20,000 nt of DNA, from IMG/VR virus record IMGVR_UViG_3300035395_000183. One strand, 5' to 3'. The position numbers and the translations under genes were made by a program. The stretch comes from an uncultured virus (IMG/VR IMGVR_UViG_3300035395_000183) (lineage: Duplodnaviria; Heunggongvirae; Uroviricota; Caudoviricetes). Of the stretch, positions 1-18,873 are shown piece after piece. The notes under the pieces are model-generated. The model did not search any database. It was not told the origin of the DNA and saw nothing but the letters and a program-made list of their open reading frames with translations. Numbering within the stretch: position 1 is the stretch's first letter; every line of letters starts with the position of its first letter.

Positions 1-222
1 CATATAATTTCTTATTCTTAAATCTTCATAGATATAATTTAAAAATTCATCATCCGTTTCTCAATCTCCAGCTGTTGTAGTTGGAAACATATAACTTGGA
101 ATCCCTATTGTTAATTTATATCCTGGATTTAATTTTTCGACTTGTAATCAACCATTATAGCAAGCTTTATATAAGCTCATTATGTAATCACGTATCGCTT
201 GCTCTAATTCTGTTTCTGTCAT
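1..222 (-). CDS. Hypothetical phage protein, 5' part only (runs off the window); TGA=Trp
   Basis: ATG at 222 overlaps the terminase TAA (TAATG). Reads MTETELEQAIRDYIMSLYKACYNG[W]LQVEKLNPGYKLTIGIPSYMFPTTTAGD[W]ETDDEFLNYIYEDLRIRNYM with in-frame TGA at 148-150 and 61-63 and no TAA/TAG. Confidence 0.8.
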
Positions 223-2420
223 TATTTAGGTTCTTTTAATGCGTTATAAGTTGCTCATTCTTCTTGTGAAAATTTTCTATAATGAGGTGTATTTTCCCAA
301 AATTCAGATTTAGGTTCATTATTAATTCATGTTTCATCCCTATTTTTTCTAGTCATATCATTTTTCTCTTCTCTTGTTTGCGGAATTACTCCATAATGTT
401 TGTATCCCTTATTATCAGTTCATCATCCAATATCTTGGAATTTTTTACCTTGTGGTTCTCTTGCTTCTGGTTTTTTAACTGATAATTCCTCATCTGCTAA
501 TTCACACATTCCCATAGCTGCAACAATATCAAATTTCTTTTTGTCTTCATCAGAGTAGTTTAGTAATTGATCTAATATTTCTCTAAACGATATTGTATAA
601 CAATAATCTAAACAAAAATCATAGATTAATTCTCTATAATGTTCAATTACTTTAACAGTAGCAGGAGTACCATACATATTTGAATTACCTTTTGAAATAT
701 CAGGCATAGTTGCTCTTGGACGTTTCATTAATAAAGATAAATATTTATGATCTCTAAAATAAGTAGTAATAGTAGTTCTTGTAGATTCTAAGACAGCTTT
801 CGCATAATAATAAGTAAGTAGTTTTGCTGCATTTTCATAAGCTTCTCTAGGGTCTCTAGGTCTGTCTTTATACATTGCAACATATTTTGGATCTTGTAAT
901 CCTAAAATTCTTTTCTTAATAACAATACAAAATTCTGAAGATACAGTTTCATTTGCTTTTTTAGATTGTGCAGAGTCTGTTGCTCCAATATCAATTGAGT
1001 CAATTCCTCCAACATATAAATTGTTATAATCCGTGCCTTCTTCAGACATTATAGGATGTTCTGCTATTAATATATTTCCATCAGGATCTTCACGTCATTT
1101 TACTTTTCCATTCCTCATTTTAGTATTTTCATCAATTGCTCATGTTAAAAATCCAGCTTTAGGTAATGGAATATCTTTATAAATATCAATATGTGCTAAT
1201 TGTTCTGCTATTTCCTCGACCGGAAATAAATTGTCTGAATGTTGAATTAAAGCCTCTTCAATTGTAAAACAATATTCAGATTTATATTCTAATAAATCTT
1301 TTGGTTCATCAATTAATTTTGATCGTTCTTTTAAATAATATTCTTTAGCTTTTCCAACATTACATCATCCTCGACTATCAATAAGCTCATAAACAATTCT
1401 ATAAGCAGGAATAAATAATCCAGAGATAATATATTTTCCATCTTGAGTAAAATTATGTCTAACAGGTAAAATATTATATGCTTGTGGATTTAAGGTCATT
1501 TTCTTTAATCCTTGCATTGAACTTGCTTTAGAGGAACCTCCAGTTCCAAAAGCAATACGTCGTCCAACTCTTTTACCTCCAAGTACAGAAATTAAAGCTT
1601 CGCCTTTAACTCATTTCTTTAATAAAACTGTATCCGCACCTGCTTCTTCGTAGATTAAAATTTGAGTTCTATCTCCCCTAAGTTTATCAACTTCATCGCA
1701 AACAAGTCCTTCAACTTCTGAACGATGTCCTGATTCACTTCCATCTTTATCTTTTTTAGATGCTCTTTTATGTGTAGCCGTATTTATATTCATGCGAACT
1801 CTTCGCAAAGCTCCTTCTGTGTTTTCATTTAATCAATCCATTTGTAACCAAATCTTACTAAGAGTTGGAGTTAAATGGTTTTTTGAAAAAGCAGAAACAA
1901 CAGATCTAAAGTTTGGAATAGTTGTATATGGTCTTACTATAAATGAAGAAGCCATTTCAGAAAATCCAATACCACGAGATTTTAATACAGATGTATCTTT
2001 CTTTAATTTTTCACACATTTCCAAATAATGAAAATATTCATATTGAAAAACTAAAAATTCTGGAAATCCATAAGTTTGATTTATAGTCTCAAAATCCGAA
2101 GATTTAAGATTATAGAAATTAAGAAAGAAATAATTATCTCCTGTTATTCTATATCCATTTACAGTATATCCATTATTACATCTATCAATTCTTTCTCTTC
2201 ATCAATCTACATGAGTCTTTGAACCTATAGGAATAGACGATGGACTATATCGGCCTGTTTTTAATTTATTAAGAGCGTCTTCTCTAAATCAATTTGGATT
2301 AAAATCTAATCCTTGAGTATCATTTATTGGTCTAAACCCAGTTAATTCAAAAGATTGTTCAATATCAAAATACTCAATAGGTTGTCCCAAAGGAACATCT
2401 CAAGTAAAAGTATTAGCCAT
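222..2420 (-). CDS. terL: Terminase large subunit (crAss-like), 732 aa when TGA=Trp
   Basis: Track ORFs 1833..2024, 1611..1808 and 423..1049 share one frame and are separated only by TGA. Open from ATG 2420 to TAA 222-224. Motifs: Walker A-like LKSRGIGFSE, Walker B ILIYEEAG, coupling motif IAFGTGG, RNase H-like nuclease YVGGIDSID and KFDIVAAMG. 13 TGA and 2 TGG. Confidence 0.95.
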
Positions 2421-2422
2421 AA

Positions 2423-2998
2423 TTAATCAAATATTCCAAGTTCAGTATTTCCTCTAAGCGTACTTTCAGTTTGCATTCCTTTTTTAACTTGATATTCTAA
2501 CTCTTTAAGAGTTGAGATTAAATCTCTACAACCTTTAATTTCTGCAATTAAATCTTTGCTTTTAAAAATAGGTTTGCCACTAATGGGATCTCTTTCTTGT
2601 AAATCTACATGGTCCAAATAAAATATTTGTTTCTCAACTGCTCCCATTGCAGATTTTAATAATCTTAAATCAAGGGACGAGTTTTGTAGTGAATCATATT
2701 TTTTACAAGCTGCACGAAATAATGGGTCATCAAATTCTGCTTGTGTTAAACGAGAATCTTTTAATGCTTCATTATGTTTATCTTGTTCCGAAAATTGGAA
2801 ATAAGGACTAGCTCAATCAAAGAATAAATATATATATTTTAATTCTCTAAAAGCTCTAAGTTTTTGTTTTCCAGTTTTATCAGTAGAAGTTTTATTTCTA
2901 TCTAAACTTAATAATGCATCAAATTCTTCAACTAATAAAAGTCCTTCTTCATCTAAAGATATATTACCATTAACATTATCATATACAAATCATTTCAT
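2423..2998 (-). CDS. Phage protein immediately upstream of terL (possible small terminase or packaging-associated), 191 aa with TGA=Trp
   Basis: Track ORF 2423..2647 extends in frame to ATG 2998 (MK[W]FVYDNVNG...YIYLFFD[W]ASPYFQFSEQ...). TGA at 2990-2992 and 2813-2815. Fits between neighbours with 2-bp gaps. Function inferred from position only. Confidence 0.75.
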
Positions 2999-3000
2999 AT

Positions 3001-3582
3001 TTATTTCTTTTTCTTTAATTTACCGCCACATTTACAAGAACAAGTTTCCATAACTTTTCCTCCTGCGGCTTTAGTAAGAATCATATCGCATCCACAAGAA
3101 CATTTCTTTTTCTTTTTAGTAGTTCCACCTTTAGCTTTAGTGATAACTGGATTTGATGCAGACTCTGCAACTGTTTCTTTCTTTGTAATTGGTGCTGCTT
3201 TCTTAACTAAATTTAATTTCTTAAGTTTAGCACCTTTAGCTGCAAATTGCGCACTATCTAAAGAATTAGTTTTATGATCTGCAATGTATTGAGTTTGATA
3301 AGCTTCTAATTGAGCTAAATTTTCTTCAGATAATTGTTTATATTGTTCAACAGCTTTATTAACAGTGTCGTCATCTACTGAAATTGTAGAACTTCATTCT
3401 TCTCCTGGTATGGTATCTTTAAATTTACCATACTTTTCAGGATTTATTTCTTGCGATACTAAGAAGACAAAGAAAGGAAGTAATTCTTTCTTTTTATCTT
3501 CTGTAATACTTCCACCTATTTGGAATGATTTTAATTTATCATATCCATAAGGATTTTTAAGTTTATTTAATTCTTGTATCAT
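3001..3582 (-). CDS. Lys-rich protein with repeated xxGG motifs and a Cys-rich C-terminus, 193 aa with TGA=Trp
   Basis: Track ORF 3394..3582 continues through TGA 3394-3396 to TAA 3001-3003. The C-terminus reads KAKGGTTKKKKKCSCGCDMILTKAAGGKVMETCSCKCGGKLKKKK. Confidence 0.8.
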
Positions 3583-3584
3583 AA

Positions 3585-3809
3585 TTATAATTTCTGTAAA
3601 TCTTTAGTATTATATAAAGCTTCCTGTAGTTGTCCTTGTGTTGTAAATCATCGACATAAAATTCCTTGAAAAAAATCTCCTCGTAATGATTCTGTCTTAA
3701 TTGATTTAGTTACTTTTTTAACTACAATCATTATAGGTTTATTTGGTATATCTTGTCTAATGGTTACTACATCACCAGGAAGAAAAAATTGTTTTAATTC
3801 ATTTTCCAT
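3585..3809 (-). CDS. YodC/DUF2158-like small protein, 74 aa with TGA=Trp (absent from the ORF track)
   Basis: MENELKQFFLPGDVVTIRQDIPNKPIMIVVKK...GILCR[W]FTTQGQLQEALYNTKDLQKL. The F-x-x-GDVV...P-x-M-x-V...C-x-W-F pattern resembles DUF2158, and the motif Trp is the TGA at 3648-3650. Confidence 0.7.
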
Positions 3810-3810
3810 A

Positions 3811-4350
3811 TTATTCCATTTTAAAACGTGCTTTTAATCCTTCATTAATTACTGCTATTATAGATGGCTCTACTGTAACTTTATATCCTTGCTGCATAAA
3901 TGGAAGAGGATATACTGTACGTGTATCATAGAATACATCGTCGCCATTTTTTATATATTTTACTTCAGGTCCAACTTCTATAACTTGTGCACATCCAACA
4001 AAGACATCCAATTTATCTTTTTCACCTGAATCAGGATTATTAAAATCTCCTGTATATTCTACTATAATTTTTCCCTCCATTACTTTTCTGTAAGGATTTA
4101 AAGCATAAGGTAAAATAATTATCTTTCCTCCCATTGGAATTAGTTCCAAGCGTTCTAGTTTTTCATCAAGTTCTTTTTGTTTCTTCTCTTGTGCTAATAA
4201 AAATAATTTATTAGCTTCTTCAAGTTCTTTCTGCTCTCTTAATTTTTGAGCATCTCTTAGTATTTGATTCTCTGGTAGAAAAATATCCTCGTTGGCTCCT
4301 ATTCTATTAGCCATATAAAATTTCCCTGTTTGTTCTTCTTTTAAACTCAT
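3811..4350 (-). CDS. GroES/Cpn10-like co-chaperonin with an N-terminal helical extension
   Basis: LIPMGGKIIILP...AQVIEVGPEVKYIKNGDDVFY matches the Cpn10 pattern (P-x-x-x-x-V-I-I ... V-x-x-VG ... K-x-GD-x-V-x-Y). Contains no Trp codons. Confidence 0.75.
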   Translation of the reverse strand: MSLKEEQTGKFYMANRIGANEDIFLPENQILRDAQKLREQKELEEANKLFLLAQEKKQKELDEKLERLELIPMGGKIIILPYALNPYRKVMEGKIIVEYTGDFNNPDSGEKDKLDVFVGCAQVIEVGPEVKYIKNGDDVFYDTRTVYPLPFMQQGYKVTVEPSIIAVINEGLKARFKME

Positions 4351-4377
4351 AATTCATTATCATTTTTTAATTAATAT

Positions 4378-4650
4378 TTACCACTTTCCTAGTGGACATT
4401 CTGTATCTTCTACTCTTGTTTTTGATCCTAACACGCAGCCACATCCATGTCTAAAACCTGGTTTAGCTGTTTTTGAGATTTCATTTGTTGCTGGATTTAG
4501 ATATAATGTTGAATTACATACTTCTCCAAATATTTTATCTTTTTTTAACAATTTACATTTATGACAAATGGCTATTCTTTCTTTATACAATTCTTCGTCT
4601 TTATTTAAAAGATTTTTGTATGTGCCATTAATTATTTGACTGATAGACAT
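4378..4650 (-). CDS. Small Cys-rich (probably Zn-binding) phage protein, 90 aa
   Basis: Likely start ATG 4650 (MSISQIING). Contains ERIAICHKC...C...GCGCVLGSKTR...CPLGKW; TAA at 4378-4380. Confidence 0.75.
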   Translation of the reverse strand: MSISQIINGTYKNLLNKDEELYKERIAICHKCKLLKKDKIFGEVCNSTLYLNPATNEISKTAKPGFRHGCGCVLGSKTRVEDTECPLGKW

Positions 4651-5345
4651 AATATAACTCCTCCTAATATTCCTCCTCCTAACCAATAAGGCCAACGACC
4701 TGCTCGTTTTTGAGATTTGTTTAATTGTTGTATTAATTTCTCATTGGATTGTTTATATATCGTTATAGCATCTTCATTTAGTTTTACAATATCTTTACAG
4801 TTTTCGGATACTTCTTTAAAAATATCAATTTCTAACTGTTGTTTATGTATAATTACTTCATCAATTTTATAAAGGTCTTTATATTTATATAGACTATTTA
4901 CTTTAAGTCTTAATTTAATTACTCCTTCTTTAGTAAATTGATATTTAATAAGTGTGTCATTTTGAGTATCTTTAATAATTGCCCATGTTGGCATTTGTTC
5001 TGTTAAAGAGTCAATTGCTTTTGCGTGGTCTGCTGCACTAGCATCCTTAATTATATTATCTTTTTTAGTTGTTTCAATATAAACAATTTCTTTTGTGCCT
5101 TTAACTTCTTTTATTTCTTTCTCAAGACTATCTACTTGTGATAATAAAATTGTATTTACTATATTAATAGAATCAACTTTTGCTTCATACTTAGCAGCTA
5201 TCATTTGGTGTTCTACAATATTACTATGTTTATAATCATTTACTCATTTAATAGCCATTCAATAAAATGCTGCCACTACTATCAAACTAGTAATAGCAAT
5301 TCCTACTCTAAAAAATAATTTTTTCTCTTGATTGCTTAAATTCAT
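4632..5345 (-). CDS. Membrane protein: N-terminal TM, long helical/coiled-coil middle, C-terminal TM (spanin-like candidate), 237 aa with TGA=Trp
   Basis: Track ORF 4632..5204 extends through TGA 5244-5246 and 5259-5261 to ATG 5345, adding MNLSNQEKKLFFRVGIAITSLIVVAAFY[W]MAIK[W]VND. The C-terminus is WPYWLGGGILGGVILCLSVK. Spanin role is inference. Confidence 0.65.
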
Positions 5346-6234
5346 TGTGTTCAATTTGTTGTTTATGAAAAGTTAGCATTCTTTCTACTTCAGTTTTTAA
5401 ATACTCACATTCATAAGTTGCATTATTTCCATCATGATCATAATGTAATAAAATAAGCGCTTTAATATTGAATCTAGGATCAATCTTTTGAATCATCCAT
5501 GCGTAAGTAGATAACTGTATGCTATAATGCCAAAAATTAGTATCTTGTATATTGTTAAGAGGATACTTCATCATAGAATGTTTTTTAGTTTTTCTATCGA
5601 AATATGCTTTCATATCAATCTTTTTATTAGTTTTATAGTCTAGAATGTATACATCAAATCCATCTATGATAACTAAATCAGCTTGTCCTGCCAATCTAAG
5701 TTTTCCATCAGGTGATATTCTAGATAAAAGTAATTCAGGATATATTCCACGTCCTGGTTCTATTTTATTTGAAGTCTTGGTAGAAAATGAACCACCTAAA
5801 CCTAAATGTTGTAATTCTTTTGTTTTACCAGCAAGATGTTCTAACTCATGCTGTCTATGAATTGCAGTTCCTCTAATACAAGAAGCTTCTCGCTTTTCTC
5901 GTCAGTCCTCAAGGATTTCCTGCTTCCTTGTAGAAAAGGCGTCTAAAGCAACGCCTGTTCTATCAAGGTAAGTTTGGTTGAATTGTTTAAAATTTAACAA
6001 ATCGGGTTTTACACTTTTAAAATTATCTTCACCTATTAAACTTTCTAATGCTTTATAGGAAGACCAAAAATCTTCATCAAATACAGTAAACTGATGAATA
6101 AGAGTTGTAACCGAAATGCAGGATTGATTAGATTCTTTAACCCAGTATTTATGGAGTTCATCATTATATTTAACTACTTCATTTTCTTTATCTACTAGGA
6201 GTTGATCATAATCAATTACATTTGTCACCATCAT
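5308..6234 (-). CDS. PD-(D/E)xK superfamily (exo)nuclease, about 308 aa with TGA=Trp
   Basis: Track ORFs 5902..6234 and 5308..5694 are in one frame and joined by a single TGA (5902-5904). Motifs: SVTTLI, [W]REKREASCIRGTAIH, LAGQADLV, ILDYKT, YSIQLSTYA. Ends at TAG 5308-5310. Confidence 0.9.
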
Positions 6235-6959
6235 TTAAATTTTTTCTTTTCTTTTTCTCTTTCATCTATCTCATCATAATTGATCATTGAACCAATTCTT
6301 TGTGCTGCCCTACTTACTAATGGTAAAATTGCTGGATATTCTAAAATATTATAGGATGATCGGGTTGTTACAATAGCTAAAAATCCAATGGCTTCGTCAA
6401 CACCCTGAATTGAATAGAATAAAACACTTTCAATATCTGCTCGTTCCATTACTTGTTCCAATACTCTGCAATCTGGGGGTATTGGCCCAGTGCGGTCAAT
6501 AAAAATGAATCCATCTCTTTCTAACCTTGTTAAAAATGGAGCCACCATTGCAGTATTTAAACGTTCATGTCTTTGACTCATTAAAGGTAATCCTGGAGTT
6601 GCAACTTCATTAGTTGCAGTCATAAACAAAAATGGAAGTCCTACGAGATTTGTAGTTCCGTTAGAAAACTCAAAAATAATTGCTCTATTAGCTTTTGTTT
6701 CTTCAGCTAAATTACTAAGTATTTCCTGCACTTCTTCAGTAAATTGTTTTCTAAGTCTGTTACCATGTTTATGATTAGCTTTTTCTTCTTCTTCTTTTTC
6801 AGAAAACTTTCTATCAATAATTTTACTTAATACATTCTTAGAAGATAATAAGTAAGCCCCAGCCAGAAGTGGGATCGAACTAACTGATACAAAGGCAAAT
6901 GCCGCTCAATATCCATGATTAACAATAATATAAGTTATTAATTTTAATACATCTGCCAT
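6216..6959 (-). CDS. N-terminally membrane-anchored protein with a probable GAF-like domain; T4-T-type holin candidate, 247 aa with TGA=Trp
   Basis: Track ORF 6231..6731 extends to ATG 6959 via TGA 6906-6908 (MADVLKLITYIIVNHGY[W]AAFAFVSVSSIPLLAGAYLLS, hydrophobic). Soluble part has ANRAIIFEF...ESVLFYSI...AIGFLAIV (GAF-like strand pattern). The 3' end is 6231 if the TGA stops, or 6216 if it is read through. Confidence 0.6.
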
Positions 6960-7002
6960 ACTGATTTAAACTTTTTAATTTTAGGTTTGTTTTAAATTTT
7001 TA

Positions 7003-7010
7003 CAAAGGTA
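7003..7010 (-). promoter_or_regulatory. Bacteroidota-type -7 promoter box for the recoded gene block
   Basis: Minus strand reads TACCTTTG (consensus TAnnTTTG), about 44 bp upstream of ATG 6959 in an AT-rich intergenic region. Confidence 0.55.
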
Positions 7011-7133
7011 TTTATAAATTTTGGAATAAAACACAATTTTTATAAAATATCTTAATTTTTAAATTCATTATTAATTATATTTGCTAAATTATTATACATT
7101 TGAATTGGGAAGTAAAATACCAATTCTTTATAA

Positions 7134-7820
7134 CTAAATGTTATTACTTCTTAATTTTGCTAATATCTTTGGAATAATAGGATTTCTTACACAGTCTTCG
7201 TCTGTAAATTCTATAGTTCCAATTAAGTCTGAATCTGAAAATATTTCTAAAACAGTTGCTAAACATGATTCGGTTTTATGTTTCCTATCTATTTGCTCAG
7301 TATCACCTAAGAAAATATATTTGGAGTTTTCTCCGATTCTTGTCATTATTGTTTTAAACGTATGGTTATCTATATTTTGTGCTTCGTCAATAATTACTAT
7401 TGAATTATCAATAGATAATCCTCTTATAAAAGCTAACGGTAATATCTCTATCATTTTCTTATTAAGCAAATCTTTTGATGAATCTGGTCCGCAGATTTTA
7501 TCTATATTCCACATGTAGGACATTACGAACGGTTCCATTTTTTGTTCCATTCCTCCTTTAAGAAATCCTATCTCTTCACCAGGAATAGGAGTTACAGATT
7601 TTACTAATATTACTTTTCTATACACTTGTCCTAATAAAGACAGCGCTGTAGCTAAAGTTACATATGTTTTACCTGTACCTGCTGGTCCTGTTGCAACCAC
7701 TATCTCTTGTTCTTCAATCATATCTATTAACTCTTGTTGTTTCGCACTCTTAGCTCTAAAGTTGTAAACTAGTCTTGAGTGCTGCTCTGGTAATCTTGGT
7801 CTGTCTTTCTTGTTTCCCAT
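7134..7820 (-). CDS. phoH: PhoH-family ATPase
   Basis: Motifs ATGPAGTGKT, EEIGFLKG, PLAFIRGLS, IIDEAQN, TRIGENSK, LGDTEQID and DCVRNPI. Its single Trp is TGG; stop is TAG. Confidence 0.95.
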   Translation of the reverse strand: MGNKKDRPRLPEQHSRLVYNFRAKSAKQQELIDMIEEQEIVVATGPAGTGKTYVTLATALSLLGQVYRKVILVKSVTPIPGEEIGFLKGGMEQKMEPFVMSYMWNIDKICGPDSSKDLLNKKMIEILPLAFIRGLSIDNSIVIIDEAQNIDNHTFKTIMTRIGENSKYIFLGDTEQIDRKHKTESCLATVLEIFSDSDLIGTIEFTDEDCVRNPIIPKILAKLRSNNI

Positions 7821-7875
7821 AAATTATTATTAACATTATGTTTTGGTATTATAATTAATACCTTTAATCAAATGG

Positions 7876-7905
7876 AAAAACCCACTACAATACTGCGTGG
7901 GTTTC
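7876..7905 (-). terminator. Probable intrinsic terminator or hairpin upstream of phoH
   Basis: Minus strand GAAACCCACGCAGTATTGTAGTGGGTTTTT: AAACCCAC/GTGGGTTT stem ending in a T5 run. Confidence 0.45.
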
Positions 7906-7981
7906 ATAGTTGGCTAATGTGAGATTGTGCCTCGATATAAATAAGATAATATCCTTGTTGTCACATGCCGCGTACAATAAG

Positions 7982-8161
7982 TTACCATTTTGGCTCTAGT
8001 CTTTTTGTGTTTTTGACGACATCACCCGCTAGATCTGGTGCAAATTCTTTTAAAGTATCTTTAATAAATTGTTTTGAAGGATTGCCTAATTGTAATTGAA
8101 TTCCTCTATAAGTTAATCCATCTTTTCTAAAGTCTACTATTTTTTGTTGTAATTCTGTCAT
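7982..8161 (-). CDS. Small helix-turn-helix-like protein, 59 aa (below track cutoff)
   Basis: MTELQQKIVDFRKDGLTYRGIQLQLGNPSKQFIKDTLKEFAPDLAGDVVKNTKRLEPKW. The ATG overlaps the TAA of the upstream gene (TAATG); G-L-T-Y-x-x-I-x-x-x-L-G is an HTH pattern. Confidence 0.7.
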   Translation of the reverse strand: MTELQQKIVDFRKDGLTYRGIQLQLGNPSKQFIKDTLKEFAPDLAGDVVKNTKRLEPKW

Positions 8162-8352
8162 TACTCAAATATTTTTTTATAATCCATTAAATCAATTAAT
8201 GTTATAAGACGATGTGAAATGCGAGTTATTTTATAATAATCTCTGCCATCCATAATAAAATCGTTATGGTTTACATAATTTAAAAGTATTCCATTTAATT
8301 CATGAGATAATTCCAATATCTCACCTTCTATTTCCCTAATTGTTTTCTTCAT
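8161..8352 (-). CDS. Hypothetical protein, about 63 aa
   Basis: Track ORF 8161..8388. The start is ambiguous because an (ATTTTC)n repeat supplies several in-frame ATGs; MKKTIRE at 8352 is taken as the minimal start. Confidence 0.55.
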   Translation of the reverse strand: MKKTIREIEGEILELSHELNGILLNYVNHNDFIMDGRDYYKITRISHRLITLIDLMDYKKIFE

Positions 8353-8386
8353 TTTCATTTTCATTTTTATTTTCATTTTCATTTTC
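8351..8386. repeat. Hexanucleotide tandem repeat (ATTTTC)x6
   Basis: ATTTTC ATTTTC ATTTTT ATTTTC ATTTTC ATTTTC, just 3' of the tRNA. Confidence 0.9.
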
Positions 8387-8392
8387 ACTTTG

Positions 8393-8464
8393 CCGGCTCT
8401 GAAGGACTCGAACCCTCACCTATTAGTTTTGAAGACTAATGTGCTGCCATTACACTAAGAACCG
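8393..8464 (-). tRNA. Opal (UGA)-decoding tRNA, anticodon UCA, probably tRNA-Trp
   Basis: CGGTTCT TA GTGT AATGGCA GCAC A TTAGT CT-TCA-AA ACTAA TAGGT GAGGG TTCGAGT CCTTC AGAGCCG G. All four stems pair, the variable loop is short, the discriminator is G73, and CCA is not encoded. Anticodon at 8432-8430. Confidence 0.95.
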
Positions 8465-8472
8465 TGGTATTT

Positions 8473-8507
8473 ATTTTATTTTATTTTATTTTATTTTATT
8501 TTATTTT
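8473..8507. repeat. Pentanucleotide tandem repeat (ATTTT)x7
   Basis: Seven ATTTT units just 5' of the tRNA; the repeat contains the TAA of gene 8491..8703. Confidence 0.9.
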
Positions 8508-8703
8508 CTATTTCTAATAAAACTATTTCTAACAGTTCTTTATCCATAAATGCAGTCTTGTAATACTCTCCAGGTGTATTTATTCTTGGAGTATTAAAAA
8601 TCTCGACTCCGTCTGTAAAAAATCTAATAGTCCATATATCTTTAATCCATTCATTGTCAAATTCTCCGGTTTTATATCCGAATTTCTCTAATATTTTTTC
8701 CAT
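8491..8703 (-). CDS. Hypothetical protein, 70 aa
   Basis: Track ORF with ATG start, downstream of a TAnnTTTG box; both Trp codons are TGG. Confidence 0.75.
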   Translation of the reverse strand: MEKILEKFGYKTGEFDNEWIKDIWTIRFFTDGVEIFNTPRINTPGEYYKTAFMDKELLEIVLLEIENKIK

Positions 8704-8726
8704 AATTCATTTATATTTTGATGTTA

Positions 8727-8734
8727 CAAAGATA
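8727..8734 (-). promoter_or_regulatory. Bacteroidota-type -7 promoter box, likely driving the 8703 gene and tRNA(UCA) transcript
   Basis: Minus strand TATCTTTG about 24 bp upstream of ATG 8703, in a divergent AT-rich intergenic region. Confidence 0.6.
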
Positions 8735-8917
8735 AGAAGATTTTTTGTACAAAAATTATACTTTATAAAAATACATTGATTTTAATTTTCTAATAACTTT
8801 TAATATTAAAATCTTAGTTTTAAAATAAAAATTATTTAATATTTCTACTTTATATATTATTTAATAAAGTAATTTAATTTTTAATGTAGATATATAATTT
8901 TTTCTAAAAACTTATTA

Positions 8918-8925
8918 TACCTTTG
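8918..8925 (+). promoter_or_regulatory. Bacteroidota-type -7 promoter box for the LysM gene
   Basis: TACCTTTG 35 bp upstream of ATG 8961. Confidence 0.6.
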
Positions 8926-8960
8926 TATCTAATTATAAATAGTAACAATTAAAAAGAATT

Positions 8961-9776
8961 ATGAAATACAAAATTAAGAAAGCAGTTGATGGATCATTAT
9001 TAAGTAGAATAAATGCTTTAATACCTCCACAACAAATGGTAAGAAACATTATAGAGGATATTCCAGATACTTATATTCCAATAGATTATGGAAAAAAAGC
9101 TGGAGAATTAATAGCACAAAATACACCTGTACAAACTTCAACAAAATATACAATTAATAAAGGAGATACTTTAAGTGCAATTGCTGCTAAACATAAAACT
9201 ACTGTTGCTGAATTAGCAAAAGCTAATGGATTGAGTGGAGATCAAATTAATCATATTGTTACAGGTAAACAATTGATTCTTCCGGGAAATGCAAATAATA
9301 TAGAAACTAAAAAATCCGTTTCAAAAAAGCAACCTATAATTAAAAAAGAAAGTAATAAAACTACTTCTAATAATATGTCTCCAGAACAATTTAAATTCAA
9401 ATCTGCCCCACAAACTCTTCCAAATTTTACGCCATTTTTAGGCGATAAAAATGCAGGATTATATTTATCTAATTATAAAGAAGATTCTGTAAATCCAAAT
9501 AATCCATTTGTAATATCAGGCCCAACGATAGTTGCTAAAAATAATTCTAATAAAGTGATTAATCCAAAAAATCCTATCGTAATAGAAGGTCCAACTATAA
9601 CTCCAAAAAAATCAGTAGTTAATCCTAATAACCCTGTTATTACTGAAGGACCAACTATTTATGGTAAACGTCCTTCAGTTATTAATCCAAAAAATCCAGT
9701 AGTATTAAAAGGACCTATCATAACTGCTAAAAAGACTATTAAAAAGAAACCGTCAGGAGGAGGAAATTCTTGGTAA
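8961..9776 (+). CDS. LysM-domain protein with four C-terminal ~20-aa repeats
   Basis: LysM: YTINKGDTLSAIAAKHKTTVAELAKANGLSGDQINHIVTGKQLILP. Repeats follow NP(K/N)NP-x-(V/I)-x-x-GP-x-I-x-x-K, four copies. Confidence 0.9.
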   Translation: MKYKIKKAVDGSLLSRINALIPPQQMVRNIIEDIPDTYIPIDYGKKAGELIAQNTPVQTSTKYTINKGDTLSAIAAKHKTTVAELAKANGLSGDQINHIVTGKQLILPGNANNIETKKSVSKKQPIIKKESNKTTSNNMSPEQFKFKSAPQTLPNFTPFLGDKNAGLYLSNYKEDSVNPNNPFVISGPTIVAKNNSNKVINPKNPIVIEGPTITPKKSVVNPNNPVITEGPTIYGKRPSVINPKNPVVLKGPIITAKKTIKKKPSGGGNSW

Positions 9777-9832
9777 TATGAGATATATTTTAAAATATCA
9801 GAAACCTGTTAAAAAAGGAAAGTAATTAAATG

Positions 9833-9874
9833 AAAATAGCCCCGATTCTTAATTGAATTTCGGGGCTATTTTTT
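9833..9874. terminator. Bidirectional intrinsic terminator between convergent genes
   Basis: AAAATAGCCCCGA ... TCGGGGCTATTTT(TT) is a perfect 13-bp inverted repeat between the LysM gene (+) and gene 9876 (-). Confidence 0.85.
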
Positions 9875-9875
9875 T

Positions 9876-10136
9876 CTAAAAAGTTATTCTCCAAGGTTGT
9901 GTATAAGGATTTGTTAAAGGTTCACTTATAGGTGTATTCCAAGGATTACTCCACGGATTGTTCGTATCATAATGTTTTCTAAGACAAGGAATACTAACTG
10001 TTTGGATTTCTACTTTTGGAACTATAGTCCAAGTTTCATCAATTCCTAATATTTCTAAAGTATCTTTTAATTTCTGTACATTTACTTCCTCATGTAATGT
10101 AACTACTTTCTTTTCAGTATCTATTGTTAGTGTCAT
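9876..10136 (-). CDS. Hypothetical protein with Pro/Trp-rich C-terminus
   Basis: Track ORF, coupled to the thioredoxin stop (TAATG); four Trp codons, all TGG. Confidence 0.75.
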   Translation of the reverse strand: MTLTIDTEKKVVTLHEEVNVQKLKDTLEILGIDETWTIVPKVEIQTVSIPCLRKHYDTNNPWSNPWNTPISEPLTNPYTQPWRITF

Positions 10137-10402
10137 TATTTATACTTATTTAAAATTTCCATAATTCGATTCTTGGATACTCCTCCAACAATTTTATCTA
10201 CTTGTATATCATCTTTAAATATAATAAGAGTTGGAATACTATAAATAGTATGTTGAGCTACTAACTCTTCATTCTTGTCATCTTCTATATCTATTTTTTC
10301 AATAGAAATATGACTATTCTCCATATCTATTTCTTCTAAGATTGGAGCCAACTGTTTACAGGGTCTACACCAATCAGCATAGAAATCAACTACTTTAATC
10401 AT
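10136..10402 (-). CDS. trxA: Thioredoxin
   Basis: VVDFYADWCRPCKQLAP active site, IYSIPTLIIFKD cis-Pro loop, 88 aa. Confidence 0.93.
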   Translation of the reverse strand: MIKVVDFYADWCRPCKQLAPILEEIDMENSHISIEKIDIEDDKNEELVAQHTIYSIPTLIIFKDDIQVDKIVGGVSKNRIMEILNKYK

Positions 10403-10405
10403 GAA

Positions 10406-10729
10406 TTAAATGTTTGCAAATATTAATAAATCTTTAAAATCTTCTACTGAATCAATTTCAAAAGCATATGCTTTTTCTTGTCCTTCTCGTTTAATTTGAA
10501 CTAAATTTGGTTTAGTCAAGTCTAACATAACATCATAATTCATTTCAAATTCATCTTCAAATGTTTTTGTGTAAACTACAATAGCAGTTTTCTCTACAGC
10601 TTTTATAAATCCAAAGGCATTCATAACCTGTTCCTTCAAGATTTGTTTGCTAATAATCTCTTTATTGATTCTATCTAAGACTGCTGTTAAAGCACCTTTC
10701 TCATGTACTAATGTTTCTAATTCTGTCAT
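10406..10729 (-). CDS. Hypothetical protein
   Basis: Track ORF 10406..10765; ATG 10729 (MTELETL) preferred because it avoids overlap with the upstream gene. Confidence 0.7.
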   Translation of the reverse strand: MTELETLVHEKGALTAVLDRINKEIISKQILKEQVMNAFGFIKAVEKTAIVVYTKTFEDEFEMNYDVMLDLTKPNLVQIKREGQEKAYAFEIDSVEDFKDLLIFANI

Positions 10730-10742
10730 TTGTTTAATTGTT

Positions 10743-11489
10743 TTATAATTCAATTTCTTCATCATCCATTGTTGCTAAATCAATAGAAGTTGCTTTTAAA
10801 TATTTCTTTACCATCTCTAATTCATATTTCATCTTATTAATTTCCATTTGCTGTTGAGCAATTATGATATCATGTTGTTCTATTTTGCATAATACAAACT
10901 GTCCGAATTTTGGTAAATTAAATTCTAAAGCTTCAGTAGGATTACCATCATTATCTGATGTAAGTCTTTTACTTATAAAGTTACTATCAATCAACTCGGA
11001 TACTCGTCTATAAATAGTAGATTCGGATATTCCTGTTTTTTCGGATAACTCTTTATCTGAATAAGTTGTTTTAGCAACTCCTGTATCTTTATCTACAAAT
11101 AAATGTTTTTGAACTGCTATCATAAATGCTTTTTGCTGTGTTGTTAAATCTTTATTCTTTAAAAATTCATAATCATACATTTCAAATTTCTCTGATTTAG
11201 TATTGAATTTATAAGCATTACATTTTCCGACTTTAGTTTTATTTATATCTCCACAATCCTCTAATCTTTTAATGGCATTTACAACTCCTTGATTTGACAT
11301 TTCACAATCTTTTGCTAATCTAGCAATACTCACTATTGCCATTTTAGTTTGACTGTTCATAAATTTCTTGATTTGAGCATAGACATTCAAATCATTATAT
11401 TCTTTTCTTGTTGTTCTTCCATCTTGTTTAAAATTTGGAGTACTAACAGAATTTGGTACTTGTATATGTTGTTTGCTACTATGTTCCAT
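10743..11489 (-). CDS. Tandem winged-helix DNA-binding protein, putative replication initiator
   Basis: Likely start MEHSSKQHIQVPN (ATG 11489). Two wHTH units (SIARLAKDCEMSNQGVVNAIKRLEDCGDI and SDKELSEKTGISESTIYRRVSELIDSNFI) and a C-terminal coiled coil; adjacent to iteron-like repeats. Confidence 0.75.
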   Translation of the reverse strand: MEHSSKQHIQVPNSVSTPNFKQDGRTTRKEYNDLNVYAQIKKFMNSQTKMAIVSIARLAKDCEMSNQGVVNAIKRLEDCGDINKTKVGKCNAYKFNTKSEKFEMYDYEFLKNKDLTTQQKAFMIAVQKHLFVDKDTGVAKTTYSDKELSEKTGISESTIYRRVSELIDSNFISKRLTSDNDGNPTEALEFNLPKFGQFVLCKIEQHDIIIAQQQMEINKMKYELEMVKKYLKATSIDLATMDDEEIEL

Positions 11490-11507
11490 TTGATAAAATT
11501 TGAATAA

Positions 11508-11515
11508 CAAAGATA
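11508..11515 (-). promoter_or_regulatory. Bacteroidota-type -7 promoter box for the wHTH gene
   Basis: Minus strand TATCTTTG about 19 bp upstream of ATG 11489. Confidence 0.6.
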
Positions 11516-11594
11516 CACAAAATTGTTCAAACAAATTGTATATGATATGTTAAAAAATGTTAAATTATAAAATTCGAGACTGAGGTGTATCTAC

Positions 11595-11670
11595 GTCAAA
11601 TTTAGTATGATTTTTGTCAAAATTAGTGGAAGCCCAAGTCAGATTTAGTATGATTTTCGTCAAATTTAGT
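11595..11670. repeat. Four iteron-like direct repeats GTCAAATTTAGT (putative origin or operator array)
   Basis: GTCAAATTTAGT 11595, GTCAAAATTAGT 11616, GTCAGATTTAGT 11638, GTCAAATTTAGT 11659; spacing 21/22/21 bp. Confidence 0.85.
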
Positions 11671-11937
11671 GACATACTATACTTAATATATACTTAATCT
11701 TTTACTATACATAATGCTGTCAATGGGCTAGCGCGACTTTCATAATATCCAATTTATAAAATAAGGTATTACAAAGGTGTTTCTGAAAAAAATTTTAAAA
11801 ATTTTTGAAAAATTTTTTGGGAAAAATTTTTGTTTTTATGTTATAAATGTGAGTCCTGTTTCCTTTGTTCCCTCCAGCCTTAAGGGGCGAGAAAGGCACA
11901 AAGTTTTTCAGACTTCAAACCAATAAAAAACAAAAAA

Positions 11938-12534
11938 ATGGCAACATCTGACAAAATTAAAGTTAACAAAATCGAAGATTTGAGCGCATTACGCGCAAAG
12001 GTAGGCGAAGCCAATGGGCTCAGCGAAGATAAAATCGCTGAAAAGGTAGCAAACGCCGCAACCGAATTTAATTCTGTTCCTGAAGAGGGCACTTTTGACC
12101 ATATCGGGGAAAAGGAATACAAACTAAAAGATGAAAACGGGATAGAAATTACTCGTTATTCTATTGGTTATTATTTAGGCAAGGACGAAAAAACAGCTTT
12201 GCACGTTAGCGAAAATACAATATTCGCACAAACCGTTACCGACGAACCTGTAAAGGTTAAATCAGTAAAGAACGCTGGCAAATATATGCTGAAACAAACA
12301 AGAATAAGTGAGTCGTTGTACTCTGAAAACAGCCAAGACAAGCGTTTATTTGCCCTTAAAGGAAAATCATTCAAAACAGTTAAATTTCCTGGCAAAGCAT
12401 TGAAAAAGTACGAAGCCGATAAAATGTTTGCACCTGCCGAATTAACCATTGCAGAAGCAAAGGAAAAGCTATTGGCTAATACCGAACCGAAAACTTACCA
12501 CGTTTTCACATTGGTAACACCACCTGCCAAATAA
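11938..12534 (+). CDS. Hypothetical protein, first gene of the plus-strand arm
   Basis: 198-aa ORF with an A-rich leader (AATAAAAAACAAAAAAATG), followed by a terminator. Confidence 0.85.
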   Translation: MATSDKIKVNKIEDLSALRAKVGEANGLSEDKIAEKVANAATEFNSVPEEGTFDHIGEKEYKLKDENGIEITRYSIGYYLGKDEKTALHVSENTIFAQTVTDEPVKVKSVKNAGKYMLKQTRISESLYSENSQDKRLFALKGKSFKTVKFPGKALKKYEADKMFAPAELTIAEAKEKLLANTEPKTYHVFTLVTPPAK

Positions 12535-12542
12535 TTGAATTG

Positions 12543-12576
12543 AAAGGGAAGATAGCAATATCTTCCTTTTCTTTTT
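12543..12576 (+). terminator. Intrinsic terminator
   Basis: AAAGGGAAGATA GCAA TATCTTCCTTT followed by TCTTTTT. Confidence 0.8.
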
Positions 12577-12604
12577 CAAACCAAATAGTATATTCATAAG
12601 TACT

Positions 12605-12829
12605 ATGCAAAATATAACTAAGGAATTGAATCGAGACTTAATTTATACATTTGTAGGAAGATTTACAGATGAAAATAGTTTCATAACAGATGATGATAAA
12701 ATTATTGATTGCTTAGCATATAGGCATCATAGATTTTATATGAACAAGAAATTATCAGCTATCAACATACAGTATATTTATTGTGGTATTAATGATTGGG
12801 TAATTTTTCAATGTGTATTAATGGAGTAG
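12605..12829 (+). CDS. Hypothetical protein
   Basis: 74-aa track ORF, ATG to TAG. Confidence 0.55.
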   Translation: MQNITKELNRDLIYTFVGRFTDENSFITDDDKIIDCLAYRHHRFYMNKKLSAINIQYIYCGINDWVIFQCVLME

Positions 12830-13233
12830 AATTACAATGAAAGAAAAGTATATTAAGATTGAGTATTGCACTCCTTTGTAGTTTCTGCTCCATTTGTTAT
12901 TAGGAGATGATTTTCATTGCTGGTTATTAAAAAATTATTGAAGTGTAATGGTGAGATAATCAGAGGAACCCATCAACACACACTCCGCAAAATATCACAC
13001 TTTTCATCTTTTCAAATCACATCTCTAAAAATACATTATATATCTGAGAACATTAATGTATATTTTTTGAGATAACAACACCTAATAGCTTACCACTTGA
13101 GTTAGTGGCTAAATGACTCATCCAACATATCACTTTACAATACGTAAGTATTTGTAAGAGTGTGCTTTCGATGCAAAATATGAACAAACCTAAAGCTTGA
13201 TACACAACAAGCTATCAAAATGTGTATACAACA

Positions 13234-13536
13234 ATGCCTATTACATCCGAAATTAAAAACTCAAGTGCAAACAGGTTAGCTCGTCGTGGTCATGGTATCA
13301 CAGGCTTGAGCTTAGAATTACAATTGGTTCATTTGCAAAACCTTGCAATGCTTCGCGATGAAGTATTAGCTTATCTGAAATCAGAAGCAGATCTTACAAC
13401 TGCTACAATACCAATGCAAAAAACATTGGCTTTCTTGGATTTTGTAGTTCAGCAAGATTTTGAATCACCAATTGCCGATAACCTTTGGAATTATGACTCT
13501 GAAGAAAGACTATCAACAGCACCATCAAAGTATTAA
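13234..13536 (+). CDS. Hypothetical protein
   Basis: Track ORF 13222..13536; ATG 13234 (MPITSEIK) preferred over GTG 13222. Confidence 0.7.
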   Translation: MPITSEIKNSSANRLARRGHGITGLSLELQLVHLQNLAMLRDEVLAYLKSEADLTTATIPMQKTLAFLDFVVQQDFESPIADNLWNYDSEERLSTAPSKY

Positions 13537-13555
13537 TCTCCAAAAAACAAAACCA

Positions 13556-13738
13556 ATGAAAAACTTCATCAATCAAGTATTGCCGGTAATGACTCCGGAA
13601 CAATTAGGAAAAGGATTAGAGCAGGTTATTGCTCTGGGTGATGCTAAAAGCCAACAACTGGCTAAGGAAGATCCTATTCAGGAGTATGCTGATAATCATC
13701 TTGATCCATTGTGGCATATTGCCAACGAAATTAATTAA
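13556..13738 (+). CDS. Hypothetical protein, 60 aa
   Basis: 3' part of track ORF 13460..13738; ATG 13556 is preceded by A-rich AAAAAACAAAACCA. Confidence 0.65.
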   Translation: MKNFINQVLPVMTPEQLGKGLEQVIALGDAKSQQLAKEDPIQEYADNHLDPLWHIANEIN

Positions 13739-13745
13739 TGATCTA

Positions 13746-13791
13746 GGTTCACCCAATATACACTAGTAATAGTGGTGAGGGTGAATCTTTT
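13746..13791 (+). terminator. Terminator-like hairpin
   Basis: GGTTCACCC ... CACTA GTAA TAGTG ... GGGTGAATC TTTTT directly after the stop at 13738. Confidence 0.5.
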
Positions 13792-13794
13792 ATT

Positions 13795-14378
13795 AAAACC
13801 CATTCTATTCCTCTAAGCTAGAGCTTATCCGAATGAGGTGGAGTCCGTTGAGAAGGATATACGGATTTATTGGGTTATTTAAAATGTAATAATGATTCAA
13901 AAATAACTGTCACAGCCCAGGATTGAGCAGGTTAAGTCTGTAGGGTTTGAATCATTGTTACAAATTAATGATATTGGCGATTGGGATTTCCGGAGCACCA
14001 AAGCTTCGGATGCGTGGCTTATTTTTATGATTGAGTCTGTAAGTCTAAGACTTTAAAAATACACATGTTTGATTGTCTAAATCCTATATGGCAAAAGTGT
14101 GAAAAGATTTTCCGAATACTAATCAGCATAGCAGATTTAGTTGCATAATATCGTGATGCAATGAAGACGTAATAAAGGGTATGAGGTTAGCCGTCTCAAA
14201 GAGTATATTACGAGGAAAGTTTATTGGTTTGTCAAAAAATCAATCGGTAATGGTGGGACACTATGGAGCCGCTTCAAAGAAGCAACACTGTTATTGTAAA
14301 GTTGTACCAAACTCAGGCTTTATGAAATGAATGAATAGGCAGTCAAGGGAGTAATCCTTTGATTGCCTTATTTGTTCG
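13795..14378 (+). ncRNA. Putative structured non-coding RNA region
   Basis: No track ORF over about 720 bp. 17-bp stem TGTAATAATGATTCAAA (13885-13901) / TTTGAATCATTGTTACA (13945-13961) around a GC-richer core. AACCCA/TGGGTT-closed multi-stem at about 13796-13876. Ends in the long hairpin AGGCAGTCAAGGGA GTAA TCCTTTGATTGCCT. Confidence 0.45.
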
Positions 14379-14462
14379 ACTCTACTAGAAGAGTATAAAC
14401 ATTGTTAAGTCTAGTGCGTTGATATAATAATATCAGGTCAAACCTATAAAAACCTAGAAATA

Positions 14463-14750
14463 ATGAACGTTACATTAAAACAAGCTTTTTCTATCTTAGA
14501 TGGTAGATTGACTACAGATATGGATGATGTATATTCCATGTTGAGTTACATTTTTGGTGTTAATCTTTTTACTCATGAATTGCCAAGTGCAATGAAAGCA
14601 TTACAAGAAACTAATCCAAAATGGTTTCAAGAAGGTAAAGATCTCATTGATGGTATTAAAAAAGCCAACAATACAAATGATTTTGTTCAACTTATGAAAA
14701 TTATTGATGAACAATTTTCAGATCGTCAAATTATTTTACAAAAGATTTAA
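14463..14750 (+). CDS. Hypothetical protein
   Basis: 95-aa track ORF; leader AAAAACCTAGAAATAATG. Confidence 0.8.
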   Translation: MNVTLKQAFSILDGRLTTDMDDVYSMLSYIFGVNLFTHELPSAMKALQETNPKWFQEGKDLIDGIKKANNTNDFVQLMKIIDEQFSDRQIILQKI

Positions 14751-14771
14751 ACCTTCAAAAACCTAGAAACA

Positions 14772-15011
14772 ATGTGCAAGCATAAAAAATTTCAAGAGTA
14801 TTTTAATACTCGATTTGAACAAGTAAAGCCTGACTTAACTGAAGAACAGGTTGCAGAAATATCCGATTTCAACTTACCAGCTGAAGAGCTGCGTGAAGAA
14901 CTGTGTGAAATCATCGAAAGAGATGGATATTCTCTTACGTTGGACTATTTAGTTGGATTGTGTAATCAGTTCACAATCACAACAGTGATAATTAATCCTC
15001 AAATGAATTAG
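14772..15011 (+). CDS. Hypothetical protein
   Basis: 79-aa track ORF; leader AAAAACCTAGAAACAATG. Confidence 0.75.
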   Translation: MCKHKKFQEYFNTRFEQVKPDLTEEQVAEISDFNLPAEELREELCEIIERDGYSLTLDYLVGLCNQFTITTVIINPQMN

Positions 15012-15013
15012 TA

Positions 15014-15211
15014 ATGGCACACGATCTCAAATTAGTAACAAAAGAAAGGAAAAGTAGAATGTTTGAGTTCACTTATCCTGGACCACTGACAGAACAAGAA
15101 GCCTGCGAAATACAAATGCAGTTAGGGTATCATCCTGCTGGATATGGCTTTTATGGCTTTAAATCTACTCCTCTCTTAACCCAATGGTCATGTGGGGATT
15201 CATGTGATTAA
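15014..15211 (+). CDS. Hypothetical protein
   Basis: 65-aa track ORF starting 2 bp after the upstream stop; LGYHPAGYGF...WSCGDSCD. Confidence 0.75.
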   Translation: MAHDLKLVTKERKSRMFEFTYPGPLTEQEACEIQMQLGYHPAGYGFYGFKSTPLLTQWSCGDSCD

Positions 15212-15287
15212 AGAATCTAGGTTTCTCCTAATGTGTAAGCAAAGGGAGATTCCTTAAATGTTAAACCAATCCCTAAAAACAAATAAA

Positions 15288-15677
15288 ATGAGTGCAACAT
15301 CACATCGTGTCCTTAGTTTAACTCCCTTCGTGGTTGAGTTCATAAACGGAACATCAAGTATTGTGATTCCGTTTCAAGTTGCTTTAACAGTACGTGAGAT
15401 TGAAGAACAATATGACTTCATTGTCTTTACAAAGACGGTAATAGAGCTTAAAAAGTTCACTGTAGACATTCATGTTTATAAAAACAGTGAAACTACATTT
15501 ACAACTGATTCGTTCAGTGATGCCTTAAGAATACAACAAGGTGCATCTGCAATAGCTCAATTAATGGGTTGGACTAGGCATTCAAGTTGTGAAGAAGAAA
15601 TCTCACATTTTGACAGCGTGTTTGATTTGTACAACGAAGGCGCAATAATTGTTAAACGGATTTATCCTAATTCTTAA
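15288..15677 (+). CDS. Hypothetical protein
   Basis: Track ORF 15258..15677; ATG 15288 is preceded by A-rich CTAAAAACAAATAAA. Confidence 0.7.
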   Translation: MSATSHRVLSLTPFVVEFINGTSSIVIPFQVALTVREIEEQYDFIVFTKTVIELKKFTVDIHVYKNSETTFTTDSFSDALRIQQGASAIAQLMGWTRHSSCEEEISHFDSVFDLYNEGAIIVKRIYPNS

Positions 15678-15682
15678 TAATT

Positions 15683-16042
15683 ATGGATAACATTGATAGA
15701 ACTGTCACCTTGGGTATTGCTGTTATAGTGTTAACTCTTATTATATTAGGTTATGTGGGTTCTTGTAATAAAAATAAAGATTCACAATACTTTAATTACA
15801 AAGTTGTACTTATTGAAAAAGGTGGCTACTCTGAACGTGATGGAAAGTTTTCTAATAACGGAAAATATTTTCTTGTTCAAAGTGTAGCTGATACAACATT
15901 GTATACAGAGTTAACAGGATATAATTATAACGCACTCGCAGAAAACAATGGCAGTGCATTATACTGGTCTAAACAACCAGGAGACACGTTATTTTTTAAA
16001 TACATCCGAAAGGATCGATTTTGGCGAAAGATTGCCAAATAA
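15683..16042 (+). CDS. Membrane-anchored protein or probable lipoprotein
   Basis: Hydrophobic VTLGIAVIVLTLIILGY followed by VGSC (lipobox-like). Confidence 0.7.
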   Translation: MDNIDRTVTLGIAVIVLTLIILGYVGSCNKNKDSQYFNYKVVLIEKGGYSERDGKFSNNGKYFLVQSVADTTLYTELTGYNYNALAENNGSALYWSKQPGDTLFFKYIRKDRFWRKIAK

Positions 16043-16075
16043 AAATTTCCGATAATTCTTTGCTACCGGAAAAAG

Positions 16076-16150: not shown

Positions 16151-16234
16151 CATTAAATCATCAGTGTTCTTCTTTGAATAACGTTAACAAGGTTAGGTAG
16201 AGACTAATTATGTGATGATTTTTCGTATTTTCTG

Positions 16235-16399: not shown

Positions 16400-16460
16400 T
16401 GAAGAATCGGAAGCATAAGGTAACTTGCTAGACGAGGAAAAACTATTAAGGAAGCTATTT

Positions 16461-16503: not shown

Positions 16504-16530
16504 ACTTTGTAACCAATTAAACCTAGTTAT

Positions 16531-18872: not shown

Positions 18873-18873
18873 T

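Follow-up and report, generated by a model that had tools for sequence, protein, structure and literature searches.

Reassigned stop codons have been described in crAss-like phages. The accessible text of Yutin et al. (2021; PMC7886860) describes 243 crAss-like phages in which TAG is read as glutamine (Gln) or TGA as tryptophan (Trp), mostly in late genes and with suppressor transfer RNAs (tRNAs), and reports code switches at short phylogenetic distances. The accessible part of a later paper (PMC12386605, 2025) describes the Lera phage of the Zeta group, with a terminase large subunit (TerL) broken by TGA, 41 open reading frames (ORFs) with TGA, and a tRNA-SUP-TCA. A code-switch model and the code-4 phages Agate, Jade, and Sapphire are given in the accessible text of the preprint by Borges et al. 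(bioRxiv 10.1101/2021.08.26.457843). Late genes recoded from TGA to Trp, together with a suppressor tRNA of the phage, are already on record in these sources; that such a reassignment has been described for crAss-like phages was also stated in the initial annotation of the DNA studied here. In this study, a stretch of 20,000 nucleotides from an uncultured virus (IMG/VR record IMGVR_UViG_3300035395_000183), referred to as the window, was analyzed for the reading of TGA in the gene block at positions 1-6959. The window adds a further case. It very probably belongs to an uncultured crAss-like phage in which TGA stands for Trp in the late genes and a Trp-type tRNA of the phage itself, with anticodon UCA, serves as the decoder.

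In-frame TGA codons of the late gene block

The minus strand of 1-6959 was read with translation tables 4 and 11. Under table 4 it formed ten abutting ORFs; under table 11 it was a string of fragments that shared frames and were separated by TGA, which agreed with the ten packed genes of the initial annotation. All nine complete ORFs terminated in TAA or TAG, and the ORF cut by the window edge (1-222) ended in TAA in locus L002, where the DNA was 99.8% identical. From ORF 1-222 to ORF 6216-6959, the script count of in-frame TGA was 2, 13, 2, 1, 1, 0, 0, 2, 1, and 3, giving a total of 25 across eight ORFs. The earlier figure of 23 internal TGA in eight genes was right in the number of genes and too low in the count; 23 is the number in seven ORFs when the cut ORF is left out. 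The 13 TGA positions listed for the TerL gene (2400 to 255) matched exactly. The sequence contexts quoted for the TGA codons were all found in the translations: CR*F in ORF 3585-3809, ED*REKREASCIRGTAIH in the nuclease, and the ends of transmembrane helices in ORFs 4632-5354 and 6216-6959. The label "DUF2158-like" for ORF 3585-3809 had to be dropped, as no Pfam match was obtained even at E up to 5.

The 2343 codons of the coding frame contained 25 TGA, 0 TAA, and 0 TAG, while TAA and TAG together numbered 173 and 209 in the other two frames of the same strand. This pattern is more than chance would give. In 1-6959, ORF cover, calculated from ORFs of 80 amino acids or more, was 0.425 under table 11 and rose to 0.927 when table 4 was used, so that the recoding proposed for this block also held by coding density. 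The cover of 6960-11937 was 0.635 under both tables. In locus L002, the nine ORFs downstream of terL contained 18 further TGA and all terminated in TAA; among them, the portal protein (phrog_6547) had 4 TGA. The recoded block therefore extends past the left edge of the window.

Codon usage was compared between the late block and the 23 ORFs at 7134-20000, which include PhoH, a LysM protein, thioredoxin, a replication initiator, and 19 small ORFs. The late block had 25 TGA and 11 TGG, against 0 TGA and 27 TGG in these ORFs (Fisher P 5e-9). TAA or TAG terminated 22 of the 23, and no two of them fused when TGA was taken as sense. The standard code suffices to read these early and replication genes, which were themselves called under table 11. 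In 7 of the 8 TGA-bearing ORFs the first Trp codon was TGA, which is not unusual for the codon mix (about 0.2, hand calculation). The base following TGA had no clear bias (A13, T8, G7, C3; n=31). The GC content was low, at 0.23-0.36.

Within ORF 6216-6959, the TGA codons at 6231 and 6225 lie 5 and 3 codons ahead of its TAA. The first of these (codon 243) shares three bases with the ATG of the nuclease gene, forming an ATGA overlap.

The authenticity of the TGA letters was examined in other assemblies. L001 was 100% identical over 1-12058 and L002 was 99.8% identical over 1-9102, both keeping all 25 TGA, and record G001 contained the entire window. Zero-difference contig pieces from runs X3 and X4, which belong to a different study from the possible source runs, covered 22 of the 25 TGA, with no differing letter listed at any TGA. 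That three other assemblies and the contigs of a second study carry the same letters shows that the TGA codons are not sequencing errors, the explanation under which the initial annotation would have given up its reading. The runs holding the sequence (X1-X5) were labelled microbial mat.

Residues at the TGA columns in related phages

The relatives of the phage were searched with TerL. By tblastn against 50,697 phage records, 115 matched, all below 60% identity and mostly crAss-like and Bacteroidota phages. The best match in this collection was MT835470.1 with 44.6% identity. TerL relatives in IMG/VR had 42-47% identity and lay on contigs of 160-177 kb. A megablast search of the window against the phage collection gave no match. 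The records of this phage were 16-25% complete (CheckV). The crAss-type TerL (phrog_6681) and portal (phrog_6547), taken from the 20 kb window and the 10 kb L002, would place it among the crAss-like phages. Where TerL relatives had a named host, this was Bacteroides, Flavobacterium, or Azobacteroides. Among the TerL relatives, two IMG/VR loci (L025 and L026) and the annotated crAss phages cr52_1 (L066) and cr125_1 (L067) had 11-17 in-frame TAG and no TGA, and L008 and MT835470.1 (L070) had neither TAG nor TGA in frame.

To avoid database proteins, in which gene callers may already read TGA as Trp, the relatives were compared at the DNA codon level; the many full-length TerL relatives obtained in a protein homologue search were kept out of the Trp tally. 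The ten late proteins were searched by tblastn against 29 viral loci, and the subject codon was read at each Trp column. L001 and L002 are the same phage as the window and were excluded from the tally, which left 27 related loci. The window's TGA columns gave 403 aligned cells, of which 97 were TGG and 102 were TGA. Aromatic replacements were frequent (Tyr 75, Phe 44). The other residues were Val 21, Pro 19, Ala 13, Ile 11, Leu 8, and Ser 7, with Cys 2 and Lys, Thr, Glu, and a gap 1 each. Neither glycine (Gly) nor His occurred. The background at non-Trp columns was 89/32653 for TGG and 2014/32653 (6.2%) for Gly codons. TGG was strongly enriched at the TGA columns (Fisher P 2e-137), and the absence of Gly departed from this background (binomial P 1e-11). 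The assignment of Trp in the initial annotation thus stood up, with the columns of TerL and the nuclease among those tabulated, and the Gly that table 25 would call for was not seen.

TGG occurred in at least one relative at 18 of the 25 TGA columns. For TerL this was the case at 12 of 13 columns, and the match of TerL to phrog_6681 (E 5.7e-63, residues 42-663) spanned 8 of the 13 TGA. The TGA column of the nuclease showed TGG 6, Tyr 8, and TGA 2. In the opposite direction, the window's TGG columns contained TGA in the relatives in 25 of 109 cells, so TGA and TGG interchange. In MT835470.1, the nearest relative whose TerL has no TGA, 12 of the TGA columns were aligned and held W4, Y4, F3, and V1, so that 11 residues were aromatic. 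Two remote standard-code TerLs (26% identity) agreed at the most conserved column only. From the TGG, TGA, and aromatic cells together with TGA at TGG columns, TGA means Trp. On this codon comparison, TGA as a Trp codon in the packaging and structural (late) genes of this phage is supported; the tRNA itself would presumably be charged with Trp.

Candidate decoder tRNAs and alternative explanations

Two tRNA genes with anticodon UCA were found in the window by ARAGORN and Rfam. The tRNA at 8393-8464 formed a regular cloverleaf with a 7-pair acceptor stem, the loop CUUCAAA, a short variable loop with no long extra arm, and discriminator G. Among its listed best matches in the phage collection, every annotated feature was tRNA-Trp (best 82.5% identity, E 5e-8). 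It shares the strand of the recoded block, whose first gene lies about 1.4 kb downstream, with three TGA-free ORFs including PhoH between them. By blastn, neither UCA tRNA matched E. coli genomes.

The tRNA at 16076-16150 was atypical. It had a weak D arm with extra bases and a G after the anticodon. Its discriminator C can pair with an encoded G at -1, and the minimum-energy fold contained an 8-pair acceptor helix. If G-1:C73 defines tRNA-His in bacteria, as we take it to do, this acceptor end is His-like. The tRNA was identical in three further assemblies. Its blastn matches in phages were weak and mixed (Asp, Lys, Val, Ile, Phe, Ala, Asn; best E 4e-3), and no isotype stood out in pairwise comparison with 48 other distinct tRNAs from the relatives and from the window phage itself. 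An exact search of the viral contigs found none. With a degenerate pattern of its anticodon arm, the genome contigs gave one chance match that was not a tRNA, and the only matches in the metagenome contigs were on two contigs with 100% identity to the window, with no diverged homologue. The flanking proteins (15683-16039 and 16691-17065) had no relatives in the viral contigs. No ribozyme adjoining either tRNA was detected in Rfam at E up to 0.5.

The tRNAs of some relatives were also unusual. In the loci of G003-G006, one tRNA(UCA) has a long extra arm resembling a second anticodon hairpin with CCA, and another tRNA has a long variable arm. One of these relatives also encodes an ordinary tRNA-Trp(CCA).

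A mechanism can be proposed from this arrangement. The decoder would be the Trp-type tRNA at 8393-8464, with anticodon UCA instead of CCA, placed just upstream of the recoded block among TGA-free genes. On entry, the host, which is presumed to use the standard code, would translate the TGA-free replication and accessory genes. The phage tRNA gene would be transcribed, and the host Trp-tRNA synthetase would probably charge the tRNA. The charged tRNA would compete with release factor 2 at UGA, and full-length TerL, portal, and the products of the other TGA-bearing frames could then be made. Until the tRNA is present, these frames would yield truncated products only, so that the code change may act as a translational gate on the late genes.

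Several points weigh against this reading. The timing of the gate is taken from the literature and, like the code of the host and any role of the second UCA tRNA, is what we infer rather than what we observed. The 403 cells count sequences rather than independent events, with several near-duplicate loci among them. No support came from seven of the 25 TGA columns: three had no aligned relative (TerL 722 and codons 32 and 37 of ORF 4632-5354), and four had relatives but no TGG. The TGA at 6231, in the ATGA overlap, could equally be a working stop, for example before the tRNA is present. ORF 17338-17835 ends in TGA, the only one of the 23 ORFs at 7134-20000 to do so. These ORFs were called under table 11, and the absence of inner TGA is partly by construction; the independent evidence for TGA-free genes is their TAA or TAG ends and the lack of fusions. 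The ORF cover of 11938-20000 also rose under table 4, from 0.489 to 0.596. The two extra table-4 frames examined there (14073-14351 and 18061-18366) had no family match, and each falls within a stretch whose folding resembles that of structured RNA. The LysM protein contains no TGA, so a "lysis gate" was not supported within the window.

Alternative explanations were weighed on the same data. A host that itself uses code 4, with the phage following it and no code switch, is very improbable. It would agree with the lack of a clear TGA terminator (none of the nine complete late ORFs and one doubtful case among the 23 others) and with the low GC content. The sharp difference in codon use between the late block and 7134-20000 speaks against it, as do the UCA tRNAs carried by the phage. 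Among close relatives, some use TGA, some TAG, and some neither, as would suit a trait carried by the phage. Moreover, the named hosts of the TerL relatives are Bacteroides, Flavobacterium, and Azobacteroides, and hosts of these genera use the standard code. An ambiguous TGA is somewhat less improbable, though still unlikely: the Trp-like tRNA would insert Trp, and the tRNA at 16076-16150 would insert another residue or mainly make host genes read through their TGA stops. Two different tRNA genes with the same anticodon UCA are in line with this, as are the C discriminator, the 8-pair acceptor helix, the G after the anticodon, and the absence of a Trp-like nearest neighbour in the second tRNA. 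Read-through of host genes is discussed as a possible use of suppressors in the accessible text of Yutin et al. (2021; PMC7886860). His was found in 0 of the 403 cells, and the tRNA at 16076-16150 scored only 37.9 bits with a poor D arm, so its activity may be weak or lost; the contig searches gave no diverged homologue of it. It is doubtful that the two UGA-reading tRNAs, which would be non-homologous, read UGA in two ways through non-Trp charging of the second, or that the second is a weapon driving read-through of host TGA stops.

The remaining alternatives have next to no probability. TGA could stand for Gly, as table 25 does in some uncultured bacteria, or for selenocysteine, and ARAGORN labelled both tRNAs "SeC" on account of the anticodon. 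Gly was absent from the 403 cells against a background of 6.2%, and Cys occurred in 2. The tRNA at 8393-8464 is of the ordinary kind, with a short arm and an acceptor stem of 7 pairs, and does not have the shape of tRNA-Sec (long extra arm, 8+5 acceptor/T helices), and the 25 sites are spread over unrelated proteins. Sequencing or assembly errors, or decayed pseudogenes, are just as implausible, and only the fragmented look under table 11 would suggest them. The 2343 codons contained no TAA or TAG, the letters were identical in L001, L002 (which keeps all TGA), G001, and the contigs of the second study, and TGA alternated with TGG at the same columns in the relatives. A strain variant in run X4 differed at 8 sites in 5452-5539, each of them the third base of a codon in the nuclease frame (phase set by hand from the gene start at 6234). 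The Trp reading with the phage tRNA as decoder is thus preferred.

Other features of the window and comparison with known systems

The features of the window are listed in Table 1. Apart from TerL and the nuclease, the other eight of the ten late ORFs gave no informative family in Pfam and PHROG profile searches. ORF 4632-5354 was present in only 2 of the 29 loci, both belonging to the same phage as the window.

Table 1. Positions of genes and RNA features in the window (aa, amino acids)
Feature	Position	Strand	Remarks
Late ORF, 5' part of 115 aa, directly downstream of terL	1-222	-	TGA at 61, 148; full ORF = L002 8875-9222; no family match
Terminase large subunit (TerL), 732 aa	222-2420	-	13 in-frame TGA and 2 TGG; phrog_6681
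191-aa ORF	2423-2998	-	2 TGA; homologues in 27/29 loci; column 62 is TGG in 14 relatives
193-aa ORF, Lys/Cys-rich tail	3001-3582	-	1 TGA
74-aa ORF with ...LCRWF...	3585-3809	-	1 TGA; its column in 19 relatives: TGG 16, TGA 3
179-aa ORF without Trp codons	3811-4350	-	
105-aa Cys-rich ORF	4378-4695	-	No TGA; single TGG is TGA in 8 relatives; phrog_13558, weak DUF6171
240-aa ORF, N- and C-terminal hydrophobic helices	4632-5354	-	2 TGA ending first helix; 3 TGG
PD-(D/E)XK nuclease, 308 aa	5308-6234	-	1 TGA and 4 TGG; phrog_298 E 6e-18, PF12705 E 2e-5
247-aa ORF with membrane anchor; TGA-bearing gene nearest to the TGA-free genes	6216-6959	-	TGA at 6906, 6231, 6225
PhoH-like ATPase	7134-7820	-	PF02562 E 2.4e-58; TAG as terminator; no TGA, the first such gene upstream of recoded block
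Small ORF	7982-8161		Weak helix-turn-helix match PF25787, E 0.008
ORF starting 4 bases after Trp-like tRNA	8161-8388	-	Begins with MKMKMKIKMKMKMKK
Trp-like tRNA(UCA)	8393-8464	-	Rfam 63.3 bits; ARAGORN
LysM protein	8961-9776		Only wall-related gene seen; no TGA
Replication initiator	10743-11534	-	
Pistol self-cleaving ribozyme	14379-14442	+	RF02679, 38.8 bits (gathering score 34.5)
Atypical tRNA(UCA), plus-strand module	16076-16150	+	ARAGORN; Rfam 37.9 bits (gathering score 29)

The GC content and the gene strand switch at about 11590-11680, and this junction was confirmed by contig L001. Near-repeats of the form ...ATTTAGTATGATTTT(T/C)GTCAAA(A/T)TTAGTG... lie at 11590-11680, in a 400-base gap between the replication initiator and the plus-strand module. 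They look like the iterons of an origin. In the plus-strand module, the pistol ribozyme lies 20 bases ahead of ORF 14463-14750 (DUF7736) and about 1.6 kb upstream of the tRNA at 16076-16150. Two ORF-poor stretches, 13739-14378 (+) and 17876-18611 (+), had fold z values of -7.15 and -4.16 against shuffles (20 each). The former ends in a strong hairpin and a U tract directly before the pistol ribozyme. Neither stretch had an Rfam match at E up to 0.5, and they may be large structured phage RNAs.

Possible expression signals were also investigated. A scan for sigma-70 promoters and terminators in 6500-12200 gave no more than shuffles give. Boxes of the form TA(C/T)CTTTG were observed at 7003-7010 (-), 8727-8734 (-), and 8918-8925 (+), 24-44 bases upstream of three gene starts and on the correct strand; one of them precedes the first TGA-bearing gene. 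These boxes and the motif TANNTTTG resemble what we take to be the -7 promoter box of Bacteroidota. The motif was not enriched window-wide, with 38 found and 34 expected.

For annotation, the effect of the code is direct. Table 11 fragments the late half, and TerL, portal, and nuclease would be missed or truncated, so table 4 is needed for the block. Code 4 is also known from cells such as Mycoplasma and Spiroplasma, where it is used genome-wide and release factor 2 is absent. The window has the same codon meaning and the same anticodon change as their tRNA-Trp(UCA). It differs from cellular code 4 in having a viral tRNA and in limiting TGA to a single gene block.

The window is closer to the TGA-recoded crAss-like phages of the Zeta/Lera type, as far as the accessible text of the two papers goes (PMC7886860, PMC12386605). 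In both, TGA interrupts TerL, which table 4 makes whole again, TGA use centres on structural and packaging genes, and the phage encodes a tRNA with anticodon TCA. Relatives with Trp at these sites, and switching of close relatives between TGA, TAG, and standard code, are shared with these phages and those of Yutin et al. Unlike Zeta/Lera, the window has a TerL that no record of the phage collection matches at more than 44.6% identity, the runs are labelled microbial mat and not gut, and the phage has two UCA tRNAs, one of them atypical. On a genome fragment of 16-25%, the phage is at most a candidate member of the Zeta group.

The window also resembles Agate, Jade, and Sapphire as presented in the accessible text of the Borges et al. 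preprint. Its replication genes can be read in the standard code, its suppressor tRNA lies in a TGA-free stretch ahead of the recoded late module, the GC content is low, and TGA stops are scarce. Unlike these phages, the window has no release factor or Trp-tRNA synthetase gene and no recognisable recoded lysis cassette, its LysM protein is TGA-free, and the phage lineage is different. No principle is changed by this case; the atypical second UCA tRNA is the one element that could lead somewhere new. The window is a clean microbial-mat case with the decoder tRNA near the recoded block, and it fits a model that has so far come mostly from gut viromes.

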